Origin: a virus
Taxonomy: Duplodnaviria > Caudoviricetes
IMG/VR virus record: IMGVR_UViG_3300006754_000028
Coordinates: 1 to 50,740 of that record
DNA: 50,740 nt
Strand: one strand, 5' to 3'
Below are positions 368 through 50,740 of the stretch, in pieces; the stretch's first letter is position 1; each line of letters starts with the position of its first letter. The translations under genes and the position numbers were made by a program. The notes beneath the pieces were generated by a model. That model saw only the letters and a program-made list of their open reading frames with translations, was not told where the DNA came from and searched no databases.

Positions 368-690
368 CAATGATAACAACAACAACAACCATAGAGGTCA
401 CAAGAGAGGACTGCGCCAAGGCGATAGCCGAGACCGTCGCAGGAGACTGGAACGGCGCGACACAGGAATACGTTGACGAGTGCGGAGGCATTGACAAGAT
501 GCTTTCGCTGGTCAACATACCCCGACTGTTCCAGCAATACCTGGATACTGCTGAGGAGTACAATGAGGAGGTGACAACCATTGACTACCTGTCTCATCTC
601 ATTGTCCACGATCTTGATCTGGATGGCATAGCCGAACCAGGGGACTTCGACAAACACCAGGCTGAGTACCTGGTCAGGAGGATAACCTGA
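364..690 (+). CDS. Hypothetical acidic early protein
   Basis: ORF preceded by CAA-rich leader and AGGAGG; the true start may be ATG 370; stop overlaps the next start (TGATG). Confidence 0.7.
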   Translation: MTMITTTTTIEVTREDCAKAIAETVAGDWNGATQEYVDECGGIDKMLSLVNIPRLFQQYLDTAEEYNEEVTTIDYLSHLIVHDLDLDGIAEPGDFDKHQAEYLVRRIT

Positions 691-1370
691 TGAGACTACG
701 ACCATTCTTCAGCTACTACGGTAGCAAGTGGCGGCTCTCTCCTCGGTACGACGAACCCCTCTACAACACCATCATAGAGCCTTTCGCAGGCAGTGCATGC
801 TATGCGCTGCAGTGGCATTGGAAGGACGTGTGGCTGGTGGACAAGAGTGAGCACGTCTGTTCCGTCTGGGACTACCTGATAAGGGTGTCCGAGAAGGAGA
901 TCAGGAAGCTGCCCCTCCTCAAGCCTGGGGAGGCAGTGCCTACCTCACTTCCAGAGGAAGCCCGTACCCTGATAGGGTTCTGGGTGACCAAGGGAGGGAC
1001 ACAGCCTAGACGGTCAATGACCAACGGCCCCAACCGTGGTCACTGGTCGGCGACAATCAGGGAGCGCATCGCCTCCCAACTGCATTACATACGGCACTGG
1101 CAGATCAAGGAGGGATGCTACAGTGATCTGAGTGACCAGGTAGCTACCTGGTTCATTGATCCACCCTACCAGGTGGGCGGCAGCCACTACACCGAACGGG
1201 ACATAGACTTCGAGCATCTTGCAGGGTTCTGCAAGGAGAGGCGGGGTCAGGTGATCGTCTGCGAGAACGGGGATGCCGACTGGCTTCCCTTCAAACCTTT
1301 CGCATCAACCAAGGGGCTGAGAAAGAACAGCTCCGAAGTGGTGTGGACACAACACAACAAACGGAGGTGA
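690..1370 (+). CDS. DNA N6-adenine methyltransferase, Dam/D12-like (orphan)
   Basis: N-terminal FSYYGSKWRL, SAM-binding IIEPFAGSA and catalytic FIDPPY, in alpha-class order; no cognate endonuclease nearby. Confidence 0.85.
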   Translation: MRLRPFFSYYGSKWRLSPRYDEPLYNTIIEPFAGSACYALQWHWKDVWLVDKSEHVCSVWDYLIRVSEKEIRKLPLLKPGEAVPTSLPEEARTLIGFWVTKGGTQPRRSMTNGPNRGHWSATIRERIASQLHYIRHWQIKEGCYSDLSDQVATWFIDPPYQVGGSHYTERDIDFEHLAGFCKERRGQVIVCENGDADWLPFKPFASTKGLRKNSSEVVWTQHNKRR

Positions 1371-3693: not shown

Positions 3694-4098
3694 ATGGACA
3701 TGGAAAAACTACCAGAGGACTGGCCGCACTTCATCGAAGCCATCCTCGACATAGAACTCGACATCAACATCACCGTCGGCGAGATGGATGAGCTTGCCAA
3801 CAACATCATACTGTCTGCAGCAATGAGGGGGGTGCTCATCCCCAGGCAGGAGATCATCAAGCACCTCAAGCACAAGTTTGCAGAGACCAAGATCAAGCAC
3901 GACGTGCTGGACATCCAGGCGCAGGTTGACATCATGCCCAGGGGACAGGACAAGTACCTGTCCAAGGTGCGCAGGAACGTCAGGAGTTTCCTGCGGCGAA
4001 GAGGTTCAGCCTCCACCCGCAAGTACCTGGCGGAGCTGTGCTCCACCTATCCAGAGCACAGCCACGTCTACGAGGAAGTGCTCAGGGGGCTGCCATGA
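3694..4098 (+). CDS. Hypothetical protein
   Basis: AGGAG SD; operon packing. Confidence 0.7.
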   Translation: MDMEKLPEDWPHFIEAILDIELDINITVGEMDELANNIILSAAMRGVLIPRQEIIKHLKHKFAETKIKHDVLDIQAQVDIMPRGQDKYLSKVRRNVRSFLRRRGSASTRKYLAELCSTYPEHSHVYEEVLRGLP

Positions 4099-4673: not shown

Positions 4674-5057
4674 ATGATAGATTACAACGAAATAAACAAT
4701 CAGCTAAGTAAAAGAAACGAAGAACTTAAATCTCAAATACAATCATTAAACTATAAATTAAAAGCAGCGAATGAGAAAATTGACAAACTGAAATGTGAAC
4801 AAGTCCTGTTGTATGCAGACATTCATTCAGCGGAAACCTGCATACAGTTAATAGAACTCACAATCTCACTATGGTACGAAACGGAACTTGAGGATCCCAA
4901 AAGCCAGCCATTTATTTGTCAAATCTACAATGAACTGCGATCCTTCAACAAACAGAGGGAAGTATTGCTTCGTAAAAATTATGGACTGCCATATCAATGG
5001 CCACTCAGACCCAAGATGATGTGTGAAAGAATACCATTGACTGATCAACAAGAATAA
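4674..5057 (+). CDS. Hypothetical coiled-coil protein (AT-rich gene)
   Basis: AAGGA SD; heptad-rich N-terminus; visibly lower GC than neighbours. Confidence 0.65.
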   Translation: MIDYNEINNQLSKRNEELKSQIQSLNYKLKAANEKIDKLKCEQVLLYADIHSAETCIQLIELTISLWYETELEDPKSQPFICQIYNELRSFNKQREVLLRKNYGLPYQWPLRPKMMCERIPLTDQQE

Positions 5058-5058
5058 A

Positions 5059-5232
5059 ATGTTCGTGACTATATTTATTCTCAGGCGCGACATCAAGAGA
5101 TGGAGCAAGGGGCACTCCGTATGGTTCGTCTACCAGGATCCAGGGTTCACATCCTGGGTCAAGGTGGGCGTTACCGAGGAGCGTCTGAAACACATGACCA
5201 AATGGAAAAGGAAACAACAGGGCTGGGGCTAA
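5059..5232 (+). CDS. Small hypothetical protein (57 aa)
   Basis: ATG 1 nt after the upstream stop; MFVTIFILRRDIKRW...QQGWG*; ends within the terminator. Confidence 0.45.
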   Translation: MFVTIFILRRDIKRWSKGHSVWFVYQDPGFTSWVKVGVTEERLKHMTKWKRKQQGWG

Positions 5233-5252
5233 CGCTTCAGCCCTTTTTTTTT
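5220..5252 (+). terminator. Intrinsic terminator ending the early operon
   Basis: GGGCTG...CAGCCC stem followed by a T run. Confidence 0.8.
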
Positions 5253-5267
5253 GCCTTCAGCAATTCT

Positions 5268-5297
5268 TTGACACCACCCCCTCTACCATGATAGGAT
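5268..5297 (+). promoter_or_regulatory. Sigma70-type promoter
   Basis: TTGACA (5268-5273), 18-nt spacer, extended TGa-TAGGAT (5292-5297). Confidence 0.6.
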
Positions 5298-5303
5298 TTT
5301 CTT

Positions 5304-5387
5304 ACCTAGGTTCGTCGCTCACGATCCCTGTGGTTTGTTGTAAATTAAAGCCCTGGCTGTATCCTCCGCCAGGGCTTTTCTTTTTTT
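5304..5387 (+). ncRNA. Candidate small regulatory RNA (~85 nt)
   Basis: Lies between its own promoter and an intrinsic terminator with no ORF; carries TGGTTTGTTGTAAA and a TATCCTCC loop complementary to early-gene leaders. Confidence 0.5.
5347..5387 (+). terminator. Intrinsic terminator, possibly also ending the convergent late operon
   Basis: 11-bp stem AAAGCCCTGGC/GCCAGGGCTTT, loop TGTATCCTCC, then TCTTTTTTT. Confidence 0.85.
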
Positions 5388-5392
5388 AGCTG

Positions 5393-5761
5393 TCAGTGCG
5401 TCAGGATCTCTACTGTGATCGCCGTGCCTGGGCCTGCGGTTCCCGCCGTGCCGCCAGTGGTCACCACCGCGTAGCACAACGCCGTGCCGAACACCATGCC
5501 TGGATCGAACCCGTACTCCACGCTGCTTCCAGCCTCAACAGCCAGGATTGACTCTGGAGAGTTGCTGCCGACCGTCAAGCTGGACGCTGCCAGGTTGTAC
5601 AACTTGAGGTACAGTTTGGTCGAGTTGGCTGTGTTGTCGATGCGTACCTGGTCTACGTTGATCGAGGACGATGATGCCTCGACCTCCGTAGCCGTGGCTG
5701 CGTCATCAGTCCACTTGGCATCGGATATGGATCCAGAGATGGATGTCTTATAGGTAGCCAT
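5393..5761 (-). CDS. Putative virion decoration/structural protein (beta-rich)
   Basis: S/T/A/G-rich beta-strand pattern; TGATG coupling; similar to 5761..6123. Confidence 0.6.
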   Translation of the reverse strand: MATYKTSISGSISDAKWTDDAATATEVEASSSSINVDQVRIDNTANSTKLYLKLYNLAASSLTVGSNSPESILAVEAGSSVEYGFDPGMVFGTALCYAVVTTGGTAGTAGPGTAITVEILTH

Positions 5762-6123
5762 CACTCACCTCCGAACAATGTGTAGGCAAGTCCGCCAGGG
5801 TTGTCATCGCCAGAAGCCCCAGTGCCACCTTGCCTGGCAGCGGCAGCGGAACAGGCTGTCGAGAATGTAATCCCCTGCCTGCACACCACCGTCATCGTCG
5901 TGTCCTCTGCCACCGCCACCTGGAAGTCGGGGCTGGTCGTCCCGTAGGTGGGGCTGGCTGCGTCGTAGAGCTTGAAGTAGGTCATGTTAGCCTGGTTGAC
6001 CAGGCGCAGGCTGTACACCGTCCCTGAGCCGTCCAGCAGATTGTTGTCAGGTGACTTGGTGCAGCTCGACTGCTTTACCATGTCATCGAAGTTTGGTTGT
6101 AGGGTGTTGCTGGTTACAGCCAT
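5761..6123 (-). CDS. Putative virion structural protein, paralogue of 5393..5761
   Basis: Shared pattern Y(L/F)KLY..A.S...G..SP....AV ... G..F.TA. Confidence 0.6.
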   Translation of the reverse strand: MAVTSNTLQPNFDDMVKQSSCTKSPDNNLLDGSGTVYSLRLVNQANMTYFKLYDAASPTYGTTSPDFQVAVAEDTTMTVVCRQGITFSTACSAAAARQGGTGASGDDNPGGLAYTLFGGE

Positions 6124-43383: not shown

Positions 43384-43413
43384 TTGACACCACACACCTT
43401 TCCACTGTATAAT
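43384..43413 (+). promoter_or_regulatory. Perfect-consensus sigma70 promoter
   Basis: TTGACA 43384-43389, 18-nt spacer, TATAAT 43408-43413. Confidence 0.75.
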
Positions 43414-43418
43414 AAGGT

Positions 43419-43560
43419 GTCTGCTCCGAGTGGTTCAGACGATTATACAAAATCCGAGAGTTGAGTATAACGGGCGGGGTGAAGACCTCGCCCTTTCCAA
43501 TTAAGCCTACGAAGGGCATACCAGCCCCAGGGCATGGGCAGTCGGGTGTCCGTGCCCTTC
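43419..43560 (+). ncRNA. Candidate small structured RNA
   Basis: No credible + ORF after the consensus promoter; four consecutive hairpins. Confidence 0.4.
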
Positions 43561-44462: not shown

Positions 44463-44610
44463 CTTTATCCTCCTTTGAAAGACGAGCGAAATGCTCATCC
44501 TTGATTCTCTTGACAACCTTCTCGTACTGATAGTAATGCGCCTCATACAGATACTGAAGCACCGCTGGATCACTGTACGCCCTCTCCATCAAATCATCCA
44601 GGTCAATCAC
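44449..44610 (-). CDS. Small hypothetical protein (53 aa)
   Basis: GTGA overlap with the MTase stop; MIDLDDLMERAYSD...KDGRG*. Confidence 0.5.
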   Translation of the reverse strand: MIDLDDLMERAYSDPAVLQYLYEAHYYQYEKVVKRIKDEHFARLSKEDKDGRG

Positions 44611-45242
44611 AGCAAACCCACCTCGTCACCCTCCATGTACCAGCCCACCCTCTCAGAGCGACTGAACATGTAGAGATACCCTCCCGCAGAACGCCTCTCG
44701 ACAAGATCATAGAACTCATCTGGCTTCTGGCTGTGCTTCCTCTTCGATGCCCTGACAATAGAACTGACTCCGTTGTCTCCAGTCTTAACCTGGCTGCCCC
44801 GTCCCCGTACACCAAACAGACACAGCTCATGCTGGCCCCTGAAGTAGTACCCAAGACCAAAACTAGGCTTAACCCAGCAAATATTGGTGATGTAACGGAA
44901 ACCAACCTCCCGCATCACCTTCAATCCGTCCTCAAGGTGGTTGTTAGTCACCCACAGGTACATATGGGCGTTCTCAGACACCTCATAGCCCTTCAGCCAC
45001 TCACGCATCACCAGTACACTTGCATCAGCACCCAACAGACTGTAATGCCTGTCAGCACCCCTCTGTATACGTCCACCACCACGCTCCAACCAAGGAGGAT
45101 CAGCAACAATCGTACTGACACTACGCAATTCGTCCCCTGAAACAAACTCAGGACACTCATCATGAGCTGATAACTCTGCAATTCGTCCACAATCCAACGA
45201 ACAATGCCAGCAATTGTCACGTTCAAAACGCTCAACAGACAT
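44607..45242 (-). CDS. MT-A70-family N6-adenine methyltransferase
   Basis: IVADPPW, HMYLWVTN, ICWVK..GLGYYFR..HE.CLFG, HSQKP and Y.YMFSR motifs; GGAGG SD before ATG 45242. Confidence 0.85.
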   Translation of the reverse strand: MSVERFERDNCWHCSLDCGRIAELSAHDECPEFVSGDELRSVSTIVADPPWLERGGGRIQRGADRHYSLLGADASVLVMREWLKGYEVSENAHMYLWVTNNHLEDGLKVMREVGFRYITNICWVKPSFGLGYYFRGQHELCLFGVRGRGSQVKTGDNGVSSIVRASKRKHSQKPDEFYDLVERRSAGGYLYMFSRSERVGWYMEGDEVGLL

Positions 45243-45927
45243 TCTAATCCTCCGATACAGCCGACACATAATGTAATTCGCTCAATGCGACGGCAGATGT
45301 TGAAATCCTCTGTTTTTCGTCGGGGTTAAACATCGAAGAACTTGTTCTTCTCTGTTAACACCCCTAGAAAAACCCTCTAATTAGGAATGTAACCACAAAT
45401 CAGCCCGAAATCCACTGCCATCTTCTAGTGACCGCTAGATTGCCCGTATGATGGGGGAGGAAAAAACCGTAAAAAAAGACAGCAAAGCAATACATCGAAG
45501 GGGAAAACGGCGCAAATGGAAGAAACAGGATACTCTGGAAAAGCTGAAAACCTCTCTAGGGGGGTAACACATATATGGTCATCCCCCACGGGGGGGGAGC
45601 ACCACCCAACCCCCATGCACATGCGATCATTTCTGTCGGCGCGCACAGCTCCGCTCGCCCAGTAGAGGAGTTTCAAATTCCTCTTAATGCCAAAAATCGA
45701 ACCTGGGACGGGGCCGTTGCTCGCAGCTACAGAACAGGTCTGGATCTCGGTTCTGATTCCGACGCTGGACATGCTCGCCTACCGTCAGATCTGCCACTGT
45801 CCCATGTTCAATTGCCCAACGTGCTCCACTGGTTCAACCGTGCAAAATAAAAAAAAACGATATTTCTTTCATCCCCGTGGTTAGGGGCTATTCTGGTACA
45901 ATGTCATGATTATCGTAGACAGCCTGT

Positions 45928-45955
45928 TTGTAAATGTCGAGAATCGAATTACAAT
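45928..45955 (+). promoter_or_regulatory. Putative early sigma70-type promoter
   Basis: TTGTAA, 16-nt spacer, TACAAT. Confidence 0.5.
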
Positions 45956-45960
45956 GATTT

Positions 45961-46590
45961 CACAAACCGAGGGCGGCAACCAAGCCGAACCGGAAAGGAG
46001 GTACATCACCATAGTTTCAAAGGGTCGTTCCCACAACGTCAAGGCAGATCCGCCTAGGATCCCTGGAGACACTTCCCGAGGGGAAGGCCGCATTAGTCGA
46101 GCGGAGTCCATGCACAAGACGAACCGCACTGCGAGGATCAAATGCTACCTGTATCATGGGGACATGAATGCTTGATCCATATCGAAGCCCCGACATAGGC
46201 TTGATCAGTGTTTTGGAGAGATCAGAACAGCGACATTAATACAGCCGTGCAATCGGGGAGGGTGTGACAACCTAGCCGTAGCCTACCTAGTAGGCGAGCA
46301 CAGAACAGGCTACCCGCTGGATCAACAATAGCGCCGGGTGAACGGATCCTTTAAACAGGAGTCGCCGGTGTACAAGTAGGGATAGGGAAAAACCCACCGT
46401 GCAACCTGGTGTTCGCCGGGTGGTGAGTGGAGACTATCCCCCAGATCTAGCGAAATTGTGAGATGTTCCGATTGATGGTAGCGATACCGAGATCCAAACA
46501 ACCGCGGCGAATCCTCCTCCTATATGGTGGGAGGAGCACATAAAAAGGTAGCCACTCTACTTTATCGGCTATCTGTGCTTCTCCTTTTTA
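45961..46590 (+). ncRNA. Candidate large structured RNA (~630 nt)
   Basis: Many hairpins, nested long-range helices, GNRA loops and G-U pairs; no credible ORF. Confidence 0.55.
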
Positions 46591-46619
46591 ACTATATTTC
46601 AACCAACAAAGGAGCAAAA

Positions 46620-46973: not shown

Positions 46974-47057
46974 GTCTACCCGATCCGATCTTTACTTTGG
47001 GGATCATTCGATCCCCCTTTGATTCTATTTCACAACAAACCAACAACAGGAGCAAAC

Positions 47058-47300
47058 ATGAACTATAAGGAAACTGAAAGCCATCTTATTTACACGCCGC
47101 TGTGGTGGCATTTACAAGGGCTTCAACAGACCTCTAGCGGGTATGGTAGTAAACTTACTACCCCGTACAAGGTTCGACACGACGGTCGATTGTACCGGGT
47201 CTATTGTATCTGCTGGAGTAACTCCGGAAGCCTGTACATATTGCCGGGCGGCCGTCCCCTTTATCTCCAGTCCTGGAACACTTTCCGGCCGGCTGAATAA
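47058..47300 (+). CDS. Hypothetical early protein
   Basis: Leader repeat plus AGGAG; SGYGSKLTT...YRVY...SNSG. Confidence 0.75.
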   Translation: MNYKETESHLIYTPLWWHLQGLQQTSSGYGSKLTTPYKVRHDGRLYRVYCICWSNSGSLYILPGGRPLYLQSWNTFRPAE

Positions 47301-47380
47301 GCCCGATCCGATCTTTACTTTGGGGATCAAGTGATCCCCCTTTGATTCTATTTCACAACAATCCATAGGAGGATAACCCA

Positions 47381-47635
47381 ATGACAAAACCAACATCACC
47401 TACAACCCTGCGAGTCTACGTTGTCGTAGACTCGGAAGGCAACCAGATCAGGGCGCATATGAATCTTGACAGGGCGACGGCTCAAGCCGATGAGATAGGC
47501 GGCGTGGTGTGGTGCGTACTGTACCGCACTGAGGGATCATTCCTGATCCATCCCGATCGCCCCGATGACCTGGAAGATGTCCACCCGTCCCGTCCAACGG
47601 ATGGCGTGTTCGAAACCTGGTCACTTGTTCGCTGA
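47381..47635 (+). CDS. Hypothetical early protein
   Basis: Leader repeat plus GGAGGATA. Confidence 0.7.
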   Translation: MTKPTSPTTLRVYVVVDSEGNQIRAHMNLDRATAQADEIGGVVWCVLYRTEGSFLIHPDRPDDLEDVHPSRPTDGVFETWSLVR

Positions 47636-47723
47636 TCTACCTTTACATCTAGACCCCGGGATCAAGTGATCCCCCTTTGATTCTATTTCACAACAACAAA
47701 CCAATCCATAGGAGGATAACCCA

Positions 47724-47990
47724 ATGATTACTACCCTAACTATCGAAGCCTGCTCCGACTGCTACACCTATGCAAGCGGTGACCTTTCATCCTTTGACTA
47801 CTACTACGATAAAGAGGAATCAGAGAGGCTCATAGGCCACATAGAAGAGCGCACCACCGAACTGTGCAACGAGCACGGATACATGACACAGGGTGATAGC
47901 CTCGGCTTCTCTAACTCATCCTGCGAGTGCTGCAATTCACACCTGGCCGGCGACCGTCACGAATTGGTGTTCATCTCGGAGTCACAATGA
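47724..47990 (+). CDS. Putative Zn-binding early protein
   Basis: CSDC...FS..SCECC...LAGDRH. Confidence 0.7.
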   Translation: MITTLTIEACSDCYTYASGDLSSFDYYYDKEESERLIGHIEERTTELCNEHGYMTQGDSLGFSNSSCECCNSHLAGDRHELVFISESQ

Positions 47991-48133
47991 CTGAATTCTT
48001 TGTGCTCCTTGAATGCCTGGGCCTGGGGCTGCTAGCCCTGGTGCTCGTTCCCAACTGGAACAGTGATACAAAACTGGAGATGGTCTCTGTCCCTGTGGCA
48101 GGACTCGCCCTGCTGATCTGGCTCTACATCTAG
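47987..48133 (+). CDS. Small two-helix membrane protein (48 aa)
   Basis: ATGA coupling with GGAG; two hydrophobic segments. Confidence 0.6.
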   Translation: MTEFFVLLECLGLGLLALVLVPNWNSDTKLEMVSVPVAGLALLIWLYI

Positions 48134-48193
48134 ACCCCGGGATCCGTAGATCCCCTTTGATTCTATTTCACAACCAACCAAGGAGGATAACCA

Positions 48194-48355
48194 ATGAGTA
48201 TCAACACAATCATGCTTGAAGCATACAAAGACTACATCGAATATAATCTTGACCGAATTGCCAGAGATGGGTGGACACCGGTCTGCTTCGAGGAGTTTAA
48301 AGCCAGCGCGGAGTCAGAGCACGTCACCGACACAACAACAGGGGAGTCACAATGA
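48194..48355 (+). CDS. Small hypothetical early protein (53 aa)
   Basis: Leader repeat plus GGAGGATA; MSINTIMLEAY...GESQ*. Confidence 0.65.
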   Translation: MSINTIMLEAYKDYIEYNLDRIARDGWTPVCFEEFKASAESEHVTDTTTGESQ

Positions 48356-48448
48356 CCTGCTGATCTACCTTTACATCTAGCAACCTGGGATCCGAGGATC
48401 CCTTTTGATTCTATTTACAACAACAACAACCAAACCAGGAGGATAAAA

Positions 48449-48721
48449 ATGCCTGAACAATACAGGAAAGTAAAATCAATCGGCAACGTACGGGTATTCT
48501 CATACAAGTACTTGGGCCCAACCAATCACCGAGGAAGCCGCATCAAAATCACTGACAAGTGGTTCGGAAAGTCAAAGACTATCCCATGGGATTACACGTT
48601 CAATTCATCCTACGAAGGGGCGATAGCCTACCTCATAGACCAGGGCTTTGACGTAGCCAGCATGAACAGCGAGGAGCAAATTATCATCATCAATGGCTGG
48701 ACTAGCCAGGAACTCAAGTAA
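48449..48721 (+). CDS. Hypothetical early protein
   Basis: Leader repeat; KYLGPTNHRGSRIK motif. Confidence 0.75.
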   Translation: MPEQYRKVKSIGNVRVFSYKYLGPTNHRGSRIKITDKWFGKSKTIPWDYTFNSSYEGAIAYLIDQGFDVASMNSEEQIIIINGWTSQELK

Positions 48722-48746
48722 CACAACAACCAAGGAGGATAACCCA

Positions 48747-48881
48747 ATGATACTGACCCTAGAAGAGGACGAGATACTCTATCTGCTGATACTCGGTGGC
48801 TACACATTCGAGGACGTAGCTGAGATGTTTGATCTGCCAGTGTCGGAGATCAAGCGCATCTACAGGCAATCACAAGACTAG
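48747..48881 (+). CDS. Small HTH protein (sigma70 region-4-like)
   Basis: GYTFEDVAEMFDLPVSEIKRI; GGAGGATA SD. Confidence 0.6.
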   Translation: MILTLEEDEILYLLILGGYTFEDVAEMFDLPVSEIKRIYRQSQD

Positions 48882-48942
48882 CAGCCCGGGGAGTTAACCC
48901 TCCCCCTTTGATTCTATTTCAACTACAACCAAGGAGGATAAC

Positions 48943-49248
48943 ATGAGAAGAGAACACGTTAAAACCATACACGGCAACCTTGTGTATAAGGACACTTGCT
49001 ACATCCAATGGGAATACACCTTCACCTACACGAGGGAAGGGGCAACCTATACAAACACATACAAGAGTTTGATTGCCCCTGAAATTATAGATGGAAAGAT
49101 AACCGAGGGCGGATTGCAATGTTCAAGACCTTATCATAACTGCAAGATTATAGGGGTCACAAAATACCGTCTGTGTACCACAGGAGGAGTCACTGTCGAA
49201 CTATATAACAACCAACAACAACAACCATCCAAGGAGGATAACCAATGA
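48943..49248 (+). CDS. Hypothetical early protein
   Basis: Leader repeat plus GGAGGATA. Confidence 0.65.
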   Translation: MRREHVKTIHGNLVYKDTCYIQWEYTFTYTREGATYTNTYKSLIAPEIIDGKITEGGLQCSRPYHNCKIIGVTKYRLCTTGGVTVELYNNQQQQPSKEDNQ

Positions 49249-49643
49249 TTAATTATCAAACAAACAACAACGGCGAAGGAGCCAACATGAGTAAGAGAAT
49301 GACAAAGAGACTTGAAAAACTGACAGCAAAGTTGAATGAGTACCTTAACTCACTGAAAGAGGAGAGATACGAGGAAATTGATGGCGGCGGACAGGTTCAC
49401 CACCTCAATGATACAGGGCTGTGGATAGGTCGGGATCAGGTCAGCCAATATTCAAAATGCAACGCAGAAATGGTCTTTCATTTTGATGGTGCTGGATATG
49501 ACATGTTCAGCGGGCAGGGAGACTATGTGTACACTGGTCTAACCAAATACAGAGACATGATTTTTAACATAGCTGAAAAGCACGGATTCCATGCCGAGCC
49601 CCTTAACAATTGGTCAATCGGATTCTATTGGGACGGTGTGTAA
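49245..49643 (+). CDS. Hypothetical early protein (alternative start 49287)
   Basis: Two in-frame SD+ATG leaders. Confidence 0.7.
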   Translation: MINYQTNNNGEGANMSKRMTKRLEKLTAKLNEYLNSLKEERYEEIDGGGQVHHLNDTGLWIGRDQVSQYSKCNAEMVFHFDGAGYDMFSGQGDYVYTGLTKYRDMIFNIAEKHGFHAEPLNNWSIGFYWDGV

Positions 49644-49674
49644 TGAGCAATATCACGAAGAGAGGGGAGCACAG

Positions 49675-50310
49675 ATGACACATAGACGACTCATAATTAC
49701 CTTTCAGAAGGGGCGGGGCAGAGATTGGACTGATTATTTCCCATTGTTTGAAAAGCATATCATCCGGGTTCTTGAAAAATTGACCAGCACCCGAATGATC
49801 AATACAATGCGGATCACCGTCAAAATGCGCAAGACTGAATTAGATCGTAGAGACGCTGCTGGAACCTGCGGAAGTTGGAAGGATTCCAAGAAGTCCAATG
49901 GATCAAAAAGCAAGCACTTCCCAATATCCCTGCATTCCGAATCAAGCCTGTTCCAGAATCTCAAAACACTGACACATGAACTGATGCATGCCGTGCAATT
50001 TGCAGAGGGGCGGCTGGGATCGCGATATCTGAAAACCCATCGTATAACATACCAGACATGGAGACCAAAAGGGCACACAGGCCCCAGCATCAGATACCCT
50101 TACTGGGATCATGACCCAAAAAGGATCGGGATGGGCAAGGGTAGGGAAAAAGTGATCATCCCCTGGGCGGAACGACCGTGGGAGATAGAGGCACAAAAAG
50201 CCGAACGCGATCTGATGTTTATAGCAGAGTTTCATGCAAACTGCTGGGCAAGCTATTCCCCATATCAATTCCCAATAACTAAGTCCGAACAGATCTACAC
50301 CGACCTTTGA
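49675..50310 (+). CDS. Putative zincin-like metallopeptidase
   Basis: THELMH (HExxH) and downstream RPWEIEA. Confidence 0.7.
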   Translation: MTHRRLIITFQKGRGRDWTDYFPLFEKHIIRVLEKLTSTRMINTMRITVKMRKTELDRRDAAGTCGSWKDSKKSNGSKSKHFPISLHSESSLFQNLKTLTHELMHAVQFAEGRLGSRYLKTHRITYQTWRPKGHTGPSIRYPYWDHDPKRIGMGKGREKVIIPWAERPWEIEAQKAERDLMFIAEFHANCWASYSPYQFPITKSEQIYTDL

Positions 50311-50375
50311 TATGCCGTAGGGTGAAAGCCCTACTTTGATTCTATTTCAACTACAACCAACCAAGGAGGATAACA

Positions 50376-50699
50376 ATGACAACCATAACAATGACATTCG
50401 AACTGAGCGCAGAGGATTTCAGATCTATATTTAGATACGTCGATATTTCTTACTGGGCAACGAGGCTGGAGAACGATGACCTAGTCGATGTCTATGCCCC
50501 GGACGAGGCGTTTGAGATCACCCGAGCCAAGATGGAGCAGGCGATCGGAGAGATGTTCGCGGCGGGGCAGCCTGGGAACAGTCTAATGTTCCAGGGCATA
50601 GACCAATTCGTTCGGCACGGATGCCCTGGCAGCATCGACAGCGACGTTGCCAACTGCATCTTACAGTGGTGCTGCTTCGGCAAGATCAAATACGGATAA
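50376..50699 (+). CDS. Hypothetical early protein
   Basis: Leader repeat plus GGAGGATA; ISYWA...ILQ...FG.IKYG. Confidence 0.75.
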   Translation: MTTITMTFELSAEDFRSIFRYVDISYWATRLENDDLVDVYAPDEAFEITRAKMEQAIGEMFAAGQPGNSLMFQGIDQFVRHGCPGSIDSDVANCILQWCCFGKIKYG

Positions 50700-50740
50700 C
50701 AACAACAACCAACAACCAATCCATAGGAGGATAACAATGA

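Follow-up and report, generated by a model that had tools for sequence, protein, structure and literature searches.

The 50,740-bp stretch of DNA analysed here (IMG/VR record IMGVR_UViG_3300006754_000028, referred to below as the window) is the record of an uncultured virus, is complete or nearly so (99%) and is carried by marine metagenome runs, of which 24 are listed, none of them recorded as RNA. Its block layout and its early leaders rest on rough gene calls, which give an early block on the + strand from ~46.6 kb across the record ends to 5232 and a long late block on the - strand from 36.1 kb down to 5393. Where these early (+) and late (-) operons converge, a candidate small RNA (sRNA) unit at 5264-5387 sits between two terminators, T1 and T2. 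T1 (5219-5253, + strand) is the terminator of the early operon and the left bound of this island; it comprises an 11-pair hairpin (5219-5244) with a 4-nucleotide (nt) loop, followed by 9 T, and is kept in three relatives of the virus, L101, L102 and L104. The last gene of the late operon (5393-5764, - strand) lies on the other side; it encodes a protein of 122-123 amino acids (aa) with no known family, and its stop codon is 5 nt from the U tract of the unit. An original prediction had interpreted the unit as a stand-alone phage sRNA complementary to a repeated early-gene leader, and every sequence string on which it relied was found exactly at the position it had given.

The unit begins with a sigma-70-like promoter (5268-5297, + strand) made of the -35 hexamer TTGACA at 5268-5273, an 18-nt spacer, a TG at 5289-5290 and the -10 hexamer TAGGAT at 5292-5297. 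The predicted promoter motif with an extended -10 element could thus be confirmed at the level of sequence. With 10 of 12 hexamer matches plus the TG, this promoter was found to be the second-best sigma-70 match on either strand of the window. Scanning both strands returned 33 sites with at least 9/12 matches and, in these 101 kb, 9 sites with at least 10/12; only the site at 43384 (12/12) scored higher than that of the unit, which was also the sole site to combine at least 10/12 with a TG. Transcription would start near A5304, 7 nt past the -10 hexamer, where an ACCT is invariant in 4/4 sequences (the window, L101, L102 and L104), and the first part of the predicted RNA (5304-5334, + strand) may fold into a weak 5′ stem-loop whose stem is closed by ACC/GGU.

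Downstream of this region lies a G/U-rich segment that we refer to as the seed (5331-5344, + strand; TGGTTTGTTGTAAA), the core of which, GGTTTGTTGT, is invariant in 4/4 sequences and which is mostly single-stranded from 5334 on in the predicted fold. The seed is followed by T2 (5347-5378, + strand), a terminator hairpin of 11 bp (5347-5357 paired with 5368-5378) with a 10-nt loop at 5358-5367 (TGTATCCTCC). Within this loop is found a sequence complementary to Shine-Dalgarno (SD) sequences, TATCCTCC (5360-5367, + strand). The U tract TTTTCTTTTTTT (5376-5387), U4CU7 in the RNA, forms the tail of the + strand terminator and, with 11 T in 12 positions, is much better than the one on the - strand. 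The predicted RNA would be ~82 nt long and end at ~5380-5387. Hfq-type sRNAs carry a 3′ module in which a Rho-independent terminator hairpin and then a long U tail come after an A/U-rich single strand; the 11-bp hairpin and U4CU7 of the unit, with UAAAUUAAA upstream in 3/4 sequences (it is deleted in L102), suggest a module of this type. A scan of 4800-5900 against Rfam at E values up to 10 gave 14 matches, none at the gathering score. The best of these, ctRNA_pGA1, reached 23.8 bits where 45 are needed, and all of the weak matches fall on the two terminators. Contigs from the runs X18 and X20 cover 5298-5387 fully and show no differences from the window within it.

The seed is the exact reverse complement of 1520-1533, a 14-mer, and its core of 11 nt is the complement of every + strand copy of ACAACAAACCA; there are five of these (1523, 1874, 2212, 47032 and 47693), each lying 0-12 nt upstream of an SD. 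The predicted complementarity of the seed to 1520-1533, and of its core to four further leaders upstream of SDs, was accordingly found to be exact. These copies occur in a standard module that separates the early genes (46979-50740 and 1-2240) and runs from a hairpin of 6-7 bp, often of the form GGGATC/GATCCC, through CTTTGATTCTATTT and a stretch rich in C and A to GGAGGATAA and ATG; at 1466-1547 the hairpin is another one, and the leader there is closer to the unit than any other.

Possible targets were scored over 85 start regions, 27 early and 58 other, the ranking of seed sites counting the opening energies of both partners and allowing only accessible segments to pair. The best predicted target was the leader of gene 1544-1867 (1520-1543, + strand), with a 14-bp perfect duplex worth -12.1 kcal/mol after opening costs (rank 1/85); as the unit's minus strand copies this leader, GGATC allows the pairing to continue across the SD. 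The other four copies, all on the + strand, ranked directly behind it: the leaders of gene 47724-47990 (47693-47703, rank 2/85), gene 47058-47300 (47032-47042, rank 3/85), gene 1897-2205, which encodes an HTH_3 (Cro/XRE-like) protein (1874-1884, rank 4/85), and gene 2242-2421 (2212-2222, rank 5/85).

A single match of this kind is unremarkable, since among random segments of 84 nt as many as 77% find a reverse-complement 11-mer at some place in the window. What lies above chance is the 14-mer, of which ~0.013 are expected per segment by our arithmetic, and the number of leaders matched. The unit matches 6 of the 27 early leaders by 11-mers or longer, and at least five early leaders were matched by only 28 of 9,790 control segments (0.3%), clustered at few loci; among the rows listed there are three such loci, one lying opposite the window-end leader and two matching via the shared SD context. 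Nine of the seed's 10 best sites are early (Mann-Whitney P = 2.3e-4), and all nine lie -37 to -10 from the start codon. A contiguous-pairing score of at least 24 was reached by 7/27 early leaders and by 0/58 other start regions, although among all 21-nt windows the seed window is in the top 1.6% by this score, a modest rank. None of 300 composition-preserving shuffles of the 21-nt seed segment attained the observed mean, top-5 mean or strong-duplex count, so composition does not explain the match. The targets form a repeat family, and the seed matches are hence not independent of each other. For the seed, the original proposal that early leaders should outrank both shuffled and other start regions was borne out, and a sequence-specific preference of the G/U seed for early-gene leaders is supported in silico.

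The remaining pairing elements that had been proposed fared less well. The loop does present TATCCTCC as an exact complement of the SD context GGAGGATA, which occurs at 10 + strand sites, namely the nine listed beforehand (47368, 47711, 48182, 48438, 48734, 48933, 49233, 50365 and 50726) plus 677. At 9/10 of them it is the SD context of a rough gene call, the exception being 50726 at the window end, whose gene wraps round. Such a loop would fit any strong SD, and with 5 of its top 10 start regions early it was rejected as an early-specific element. GATCCC, put forward as a further match to the leaders, is found at 24 places on the + strand and has changed in relatives (GATCCT in L102, GTGTGC in L101); as a third pairing site it was discarded as trivial and not conserved. 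The suggestion that one RNA could switch off the whole early regulon proved too broad, as good seed targets are found at only ~8-9 of the 27 early start regions. The seed observation is thus solid, that of the loop is real but unspecific, and GATCCC is noise.

Four loci of relatives were obtained by searching metagenomes with the neighbouring late protein of 123 aa; this comparison stands apart from the contigs (up to 61,662 nt) that encode 21 homologues of the same protein. The unit is present in L104 (99% identical), L102 (89%) and L101 (82%), and a fifth, more diverged variant in a contig of run X22 keeps GTGGTTTGTTGT beside the hairpin. Invariant in the four full sequences are TTCTTTGACA, the TG, -10 positions 1, 2 and 6 and the 18-nt length of the spacer, together with GGTTTGTTGT, the hairpin, the loop sequence ATCCTCC and the U tract (one T fewer in L102). 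The T2 stem shows one compensatory change, U-A to C-G in L101, and the 5′ part of the T2 loop changes in L102 while ATCCTCC is kept in 4/4. The sequence of the spacer, the first 25 nt of the RNA (60% identity in L101) and the AAATTA linker (deleted in L102) are variable, and one predicted fold layout is common to all four sequences.

Over 5264-5303, L101 differs from the window at 15 of 40 positions and L102 at 9 of 40, none of these differences falling on the 11 critical promoter positions (the -35 hexamer, the TG and -10 positions 1, 2 and 6); the hypergeometric P for this sparing is 0.0019 for L101 and 0.037 for L102. The critical bases are kept in 3/3 relatives, as would be expected of an independent promoter. 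Over 5329-5387 the identity to L101 is 91.5% compared with 73.8% at the wobble positions of the adjacent gene (P = 6e-4). L101 and L104 keep leaders of the ACAACAAACC type and their seed core is also unchanged, while the 2.9 kb available of the early part of L102 contain no ACAACAAACC leader. A change at the edge of the seed in L101 (T5331 to G) is unmatched by most of its leaders.

At the position of the unit, more distant relatives have one terminator or further late genes, and their leaders are CA-rich but of other types (ACACAC in G002). A covariance model of the unit, R1, found only its four input sequences among 15 sources. In IMG/VR, an exact 23-mer of the unit and a structured degenerate pattern were both without match, and of the 28 loci found with a looser pattern the covariance model confirmed none. 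For the leader 16-mer, 91 stretches are listed in IMG/VR; in a BLAST comparison that covered the loci L010-L089 from this list, only L038 was related to the window, and it lacks the unit. L038 1669-2099 (record G003, 30,523 bp, 95% complete) holds a homologue of the early gene 50376-50699 with 86% nucleotide identity and the same leader module, in a different and much smaller virus record that has no counterpart of the sRNA unit; unrelated phages appear to exchange cassettes made of a leader and its gene. An analogous unit was also sought in G002, where the G/U-rich stretch after the early terminator is only in the top 1.9% of windows for complementarity to its own leaders, and a strong anti-leader 11-mer at 2538 simply lies opposite a minus-strand leader; both candidates were rejected.

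From the sequence features described so far, a separate + strand unit is plausible, and a discrete + strand RNA is probably made from it. The full reading, in which this RNA is made and represses a subset of the early genes by pairing to their ACA-rich enhancers, is one to which we assign a probability of roughly 0.4; transcription, its start site, pairing in vivo, repression and a role of Hfq are steps that we infer from these features.

A considerable number of observations weigh against this reading. Within the predicted RNA, the 5′ stem is no better than that of shuffled sequences (z -0.8 to -1.3) and was rejected as a supported structure. The first seed bases are predicted to be paired, the probability of being unpaired amounting to 0.003 for 5331-5342 and 0.094 for 5334-5344. 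In predicted folding, the whole unit does equally well on either strand (z -5.59 for the minus and -5.67 for the plus strand). The two pairing elements, seed and loop, are not colinear on a target, as had been conceded from the outset, and the best match of the loop is to a middle-block gene. Naive duplex energies with the whole 84-nt RNA show no early preference (P = 0.97), because the GC-rich terminator arms dominate. The comparative evidence has its own gaps: L102 shows no excess conservation of 5329-5387 (P = 0.26), and the identity of the 10-nt seed core with L101 has a P of ~0.05 by our arithmetic once the minus-strand U tract is discounted. The unit is lacking in the more distant but syntenic G002 (75% TerL identity) and in L105 (69% in the 123-aa protein), L103 has no unit in the 177 nt left before its contig end, and the three independent relatives from which the unit is known are few and close. 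Since the stop codon of gene 5393-5764 is so near to the U tract, T2 may also end the late operon, terminating or attenuating late transcription.

A further objection is that the complementarity has a simple historical cause, which the original prediction missed. On the minus strand of the unit, the elements stand in the same order as in the early separator module, namely hairpin, T-rich stretch, (TTT)ACAACAAACCA, SD-like GGAT and start-codon position, and the two align colinearly; the leader of gene 1544 is again the closest. The matches of the seed and of GATCC to the leaders follow from common descent from the leader module and need no selection for pairing, and because the minus strand is an inverted leader copy, complementarity alone does not show function.

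The genes that this inverted leader probably serves, or once served, are genes appended to the late operon, and they can be seen in L102. There, ~840 bp are inserted exactly at window position 5263/5264, where L101 has 29 extra nt. The L102 insert (655-1465, the + strand of that locus corresponding to the minus strand of the window) encodes a DUF5872 protein (E = 2.9e-13), a 44-aa open reading frame (ORF) and a weakly DUF5754-like protein. These cassette genes are small and lysine-rich and follow the late operon in some population variants; the cassette is missing from the window, L104 and L101, and contigs of run X22 show the cassette form (loose ends at 5251 and 5259). The DUF5872 gene of L102 starts inside the opposite-strand promoter of the RNA, its GGAGGATA-type SD lies in the spacer, and the -35 hexamer coincides with the end of the DUF5872 start codon, the second codon and the first base of the third. 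Part of the promoter conservation could therefore be inherited coding constraint, which adds to the case against a functional RNA. In the window, the cassette junction (5264-5274, - strand) retains GTG-TCA-AAG-AA, an 11-nt remnant of the DUF5872 start that overlaps the -35 hexamer, and L101 keeps a longer remnant. In L101 (reverse complement, ~3760-3800), just before T1, we also observed a leader-like AACAACAAACAGAGGATTAAAC with no start codon or ORF behind it, at a place where the window has gene 5059-5232; leader modules evidently outlive their genes.

These data give rise to the best-surviving alternative, namely that there is no functional + strand RNA and that the unit is a (bidirectional) late-operon terminator plus an inverted leader, the decaying relic of a deleted DUF5872 cassette, its promoter-like match being a by-product of the former gene start. 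The colinearity of the minus strand with the early modules, the SD and start of the L102 cassette inside the supposed promoter and the persistence of DUF5872 start remnants in the window (5264-5274, -) and in L101 are all in keeping with this explanation. So are the fast evolution of the 5′ third of the putative RNA (the 60% identity with L101 noted above) and the single terminator or further late genes found here in distant relatives. In L102, most of the minus-strand U tract is lost with the 6 nt AAATTA, a deletion that would be in line with late read-through into the cassette. The relic explanation has more difficulty with the promoter itself, as the probability of so good a match in a given 60-nt stretch is roughly 0.005 at most (9 sites with at least 10/12 per 101 kb). 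Its critical bases were left untouched by 15 and 9 substitutions, whereas the neighbouring DUF5872 SD in the spacer has decayed in two cassette-less genomes, in which TTCTTTGACA is unchanged and the TG and -10 hexamer have likewise not decayed. Nor would a relic readily account for a + strand U tract (11/12 T) that beats the minus-strand one and is conserved in non-coding DNA, or for a T2 loop that keeps ATCCTCC while its other positions change; in addition, no consistent ORF follows the minus-strand leader (6, 11 and 62 codons in three genomes). In L102, T1 lies 900 nt upstream of the unit across minus-strand genes, the cassette standing between them, and the unit promoter is the only + strand source 5′ of T2. 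It is this last point together with the rank of the promoter, the decay of the old SD beside an intact promoter, the conserved non-coding U tract and ATCCTCC in an unusually large loop that keeps the + strand RNA alive as an explanation, and we regard a mere relic as unlikely, if by no means far-fetched.

It may also be that the + strand RNA is real but has its main role elsewhere, either in cis, as an antisense RNA to late read-through or to the 5′ untranslated region (UTR) of the DUF5872 cassette, or on host mRNAs with C/A-rich enhancers, as a mimic of the enterobacterial sRNA GcvB. A cis role suits L102, where the 47 nt that separate T2 from the cassette SD are complementary to the RNA over their full length and where the RNA promoter overlaps SD and start. 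The design is also like that of short antisense RNAs of phages that each carry a promoter and a terminator of their own, as far as these are covered in the available text of PMC12197685. For a role in the host, the seed resembles a generic sequence against ACA enhancers of the kind presented in the accessible part of PMC3879156. In the window, no minus-strand gene lies to the left of 5393, an antisense overlap being found only in L102, and three sequences without the cassette (window, L104 and L101) retain the unit and its intact promoter while offering nothing to regulate downstream on the minus strand. A main role of this kind, in cis or in the host, appears improbable to us.

Finally, a small protein can be dismissed: the unit had been said to hold no ORF and does have a 33-codon ATG frame (5288-5389, + strand; 33 aa), with ATG or GTG frames opening at the same place in L101 (32 codons) and L102 (21 codons) and window-L101 indels summing to multiples of three, but the frame has no SD, starts inside the -10/TG element, has N-terminal halves that are unrelated owing to compensating frameshifts and a C-terminus that is terminator stem and T tract, stops inside the loop in L102, and is not conserved as a protein.

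If the anti-enhancer reading is right, host RNA polymerase with sigma-70 would start near A5304 from TTGACA-N18-TGaTAGGAT from the start of infection and would stop at the hairpin and U tract, at ~5380-5387. The RNA would then have the layout of enterobacterial Hfq-type sRNAs, with a weak 5′ stem-loop, a single-stranded G/U stretch UUGUUGUAAAUUA (its upstream GG partly paired), a terminator hairpin and a U tail. As it accumulates, UUGUUGU(AAAUUA) would pair with enhancers of the ACAACAAACC type located between -32 and -10 in ~8-9 early genes out of 27, the proposed targets being genes 1544, 1897 (HTH_3), 2242, 3128, 47058, 47724, 48449 and 50376. By analogy with GcvB, this pairing would block enhancer function and 30S binding, lowering translation and probably mRNA stability, with the effect of braking or timing part of the early programme. 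Some weak, general affinity for strong SDs may come from the anti-SD loop, but the proposal does not depend on it.

As to its origin, the RNA gene would have arisen as, or within, an inverted copy of the early leader module. It may first have been the cis-antisense partner of the cassette leader and then a trans regulator that outlived the cassette, a change that would have come about automatically because the cassette leader belongs to a repeated family. Taken whole, this account of a GcvB-like anti-enhancer sRNA, born by inversion of a leader module with a host-type promoter, first cis-antisense to the DUF5872 cassette leader and later acting in trans to turn down a third of the early genes together, is offered tentatively, and we would not yet bet on it.

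Should it hold, an RNA derived from the modular leader of the phage itself would shut off early genes across a regulon, a simple route to this end in a phage in which neither an RNA polymerase nor an integrase was found among the proteins scanned. The ACA/CA-rich translational enhancers that are widespread in phage leaders would also be linked to a regulator dedicated to them, and an inverted copy of a target would be seen to have given rise to a trans-acting sRNA. The unit lends itself to direct tests with small constructs.

Beyond the unit, the rough gene calls give a further block on the + strand at 36-41 kb and another on the - strand at 41-46 kb. The majority of the proteins scanned have no family match, there is no sign of lysogeny genes among them, and a scan of the window for transfer RNA genes was negative. 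The GenBank phage collection gave no DNA match to the window, its TerL relatives being at most 27% identical, and scans of genome contigs for the host turned up no relative. Gene 4674-5057 (127 aa, no family) is missing from L104 and from the X18 and X20 contigs, which join ~4649 straight to 5059; it is an accessory gene, present in some genomes and absent from others, at the end of the early operon. A stretch of ~800 nt that heads the early region (45800-46600) contains no convincing ORF and many GATC-containing inverted repeats. The early hairpins are likewise built around GATC, in a phage with two adenine-methyltransferase-like genes, at 690-1370 (+) and 44607-45269 (-) (D12 class, E = 1.7e-5; MT-A70, E = 2.1e-14).

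A second site of similar appearance was noted at 43384-43500 (+). The perfect TTGACA-N18-TATAAT promoter found there matches better than any other in the window, has TTGACACCAC in common with the promoter of the unit and faces ~80 nt poor in ORFs, for which three hairpins are predicted, TTT coming after the last of them (~43472-43493); the promoter is overlapped by a divergent promoter-like site on the minus strand at 43390. This region has no long complementarity elsewhere in the window (10 nt at most), and may be a second small RNA gene of like design.

Of the known systems, GcvB is the nearest in its proposed way of working. GcvB is ~200 nt long whereas the RNA of the unit would be ~82 nt; the two share no homology, the Rfam scan giving no GcvB match even at E values up to 10, and the unit is phage-encoded, with the phage's own early genes as predicted targets. 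Both would act on multiple targets and end in a Rho-independent terminator. In the accessible part of PMC3879156, GcvB is described as a repressor that pairs with ACA motifs in enhancers located directly upstream of the SD, and the likeness lies in a single-stranded G/U-rich region directed against such C/A-rich enhancers, by which many mRNAs are silenced.

Phage RNAs of comparable size differ from the unit in that its several dispersed targets are defined by a shared leader, which sets it apart from c4 of P1/P7, sar of P22 and OOP of lambda alike. The c4 RNA pairs at two sites with the ribosome-binding region, is processed from a longer transcript and acts on one target operon in prophage immunity. 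The unit has a separate promoter and several dispersed targets sharing a leader, and no lysogeny genes accompany it among the proteins scanned. What c4 has in common with it, from the available text of PMC12197685, is that a phage RNA of ~77 nt acts in trans on a phage mRNA (ant) via short complementary stretches. The same text gives sar and OOP as RNAs of 68-77 nt with their own promoter and terminator, encoded between or against phage genes (PMC12197685). This likeness extends to antisense position only in L102, where the unit lies opposite the 5′ UTR of a gene on the minus strand and the RNA promoter overlaps the start of that gene; there is no overlapping gene in the window, and the Rfam match to sar is weak (19.1 bits against a threshold of 43) and confined to the terminator. 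AgvB, an anti-sRNA from a prophage of enterohaemorrhagic Escherichia coli (EHEC), is also a phage RNA that intervenes in the pairing of GcvB with C/A-rich targets; as outlined there, it mimics the C/A-rich target to sponge GcvB, whereas the unit would carry the G/U-rich side of the regulator (PMC12197685).

In the table of this 2025 review, as far as its text was available, the characterised phage sRNAs are cis-antisense RNAs, regulators of a single phage target or regulators of host genes, and none of them is described there as controlling its phage's own early-gene set via a shared leader; its 38 uncharacterised sRNAs (Table S1) lie outside this comparison (PMC12197685). Our literature searches likewise found no phage sRNA that regulates a set of the phage's own early genes. 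A terminator loop of importance for regulation has a counterpart in SdsR, RseX and ArrS acting on fepA, although in the part of PMC11979758 available these loops are said to act ‘likely without base-pairing’, while that of the unit is an anti-SD 7-mer without early-gene specificity. From these comparisons and its sequence, the unit emerges as a credible candidate for a phage-encoded base-pairing sRNA, GcvB-like in its proposed working while not a member of the GcvB family.

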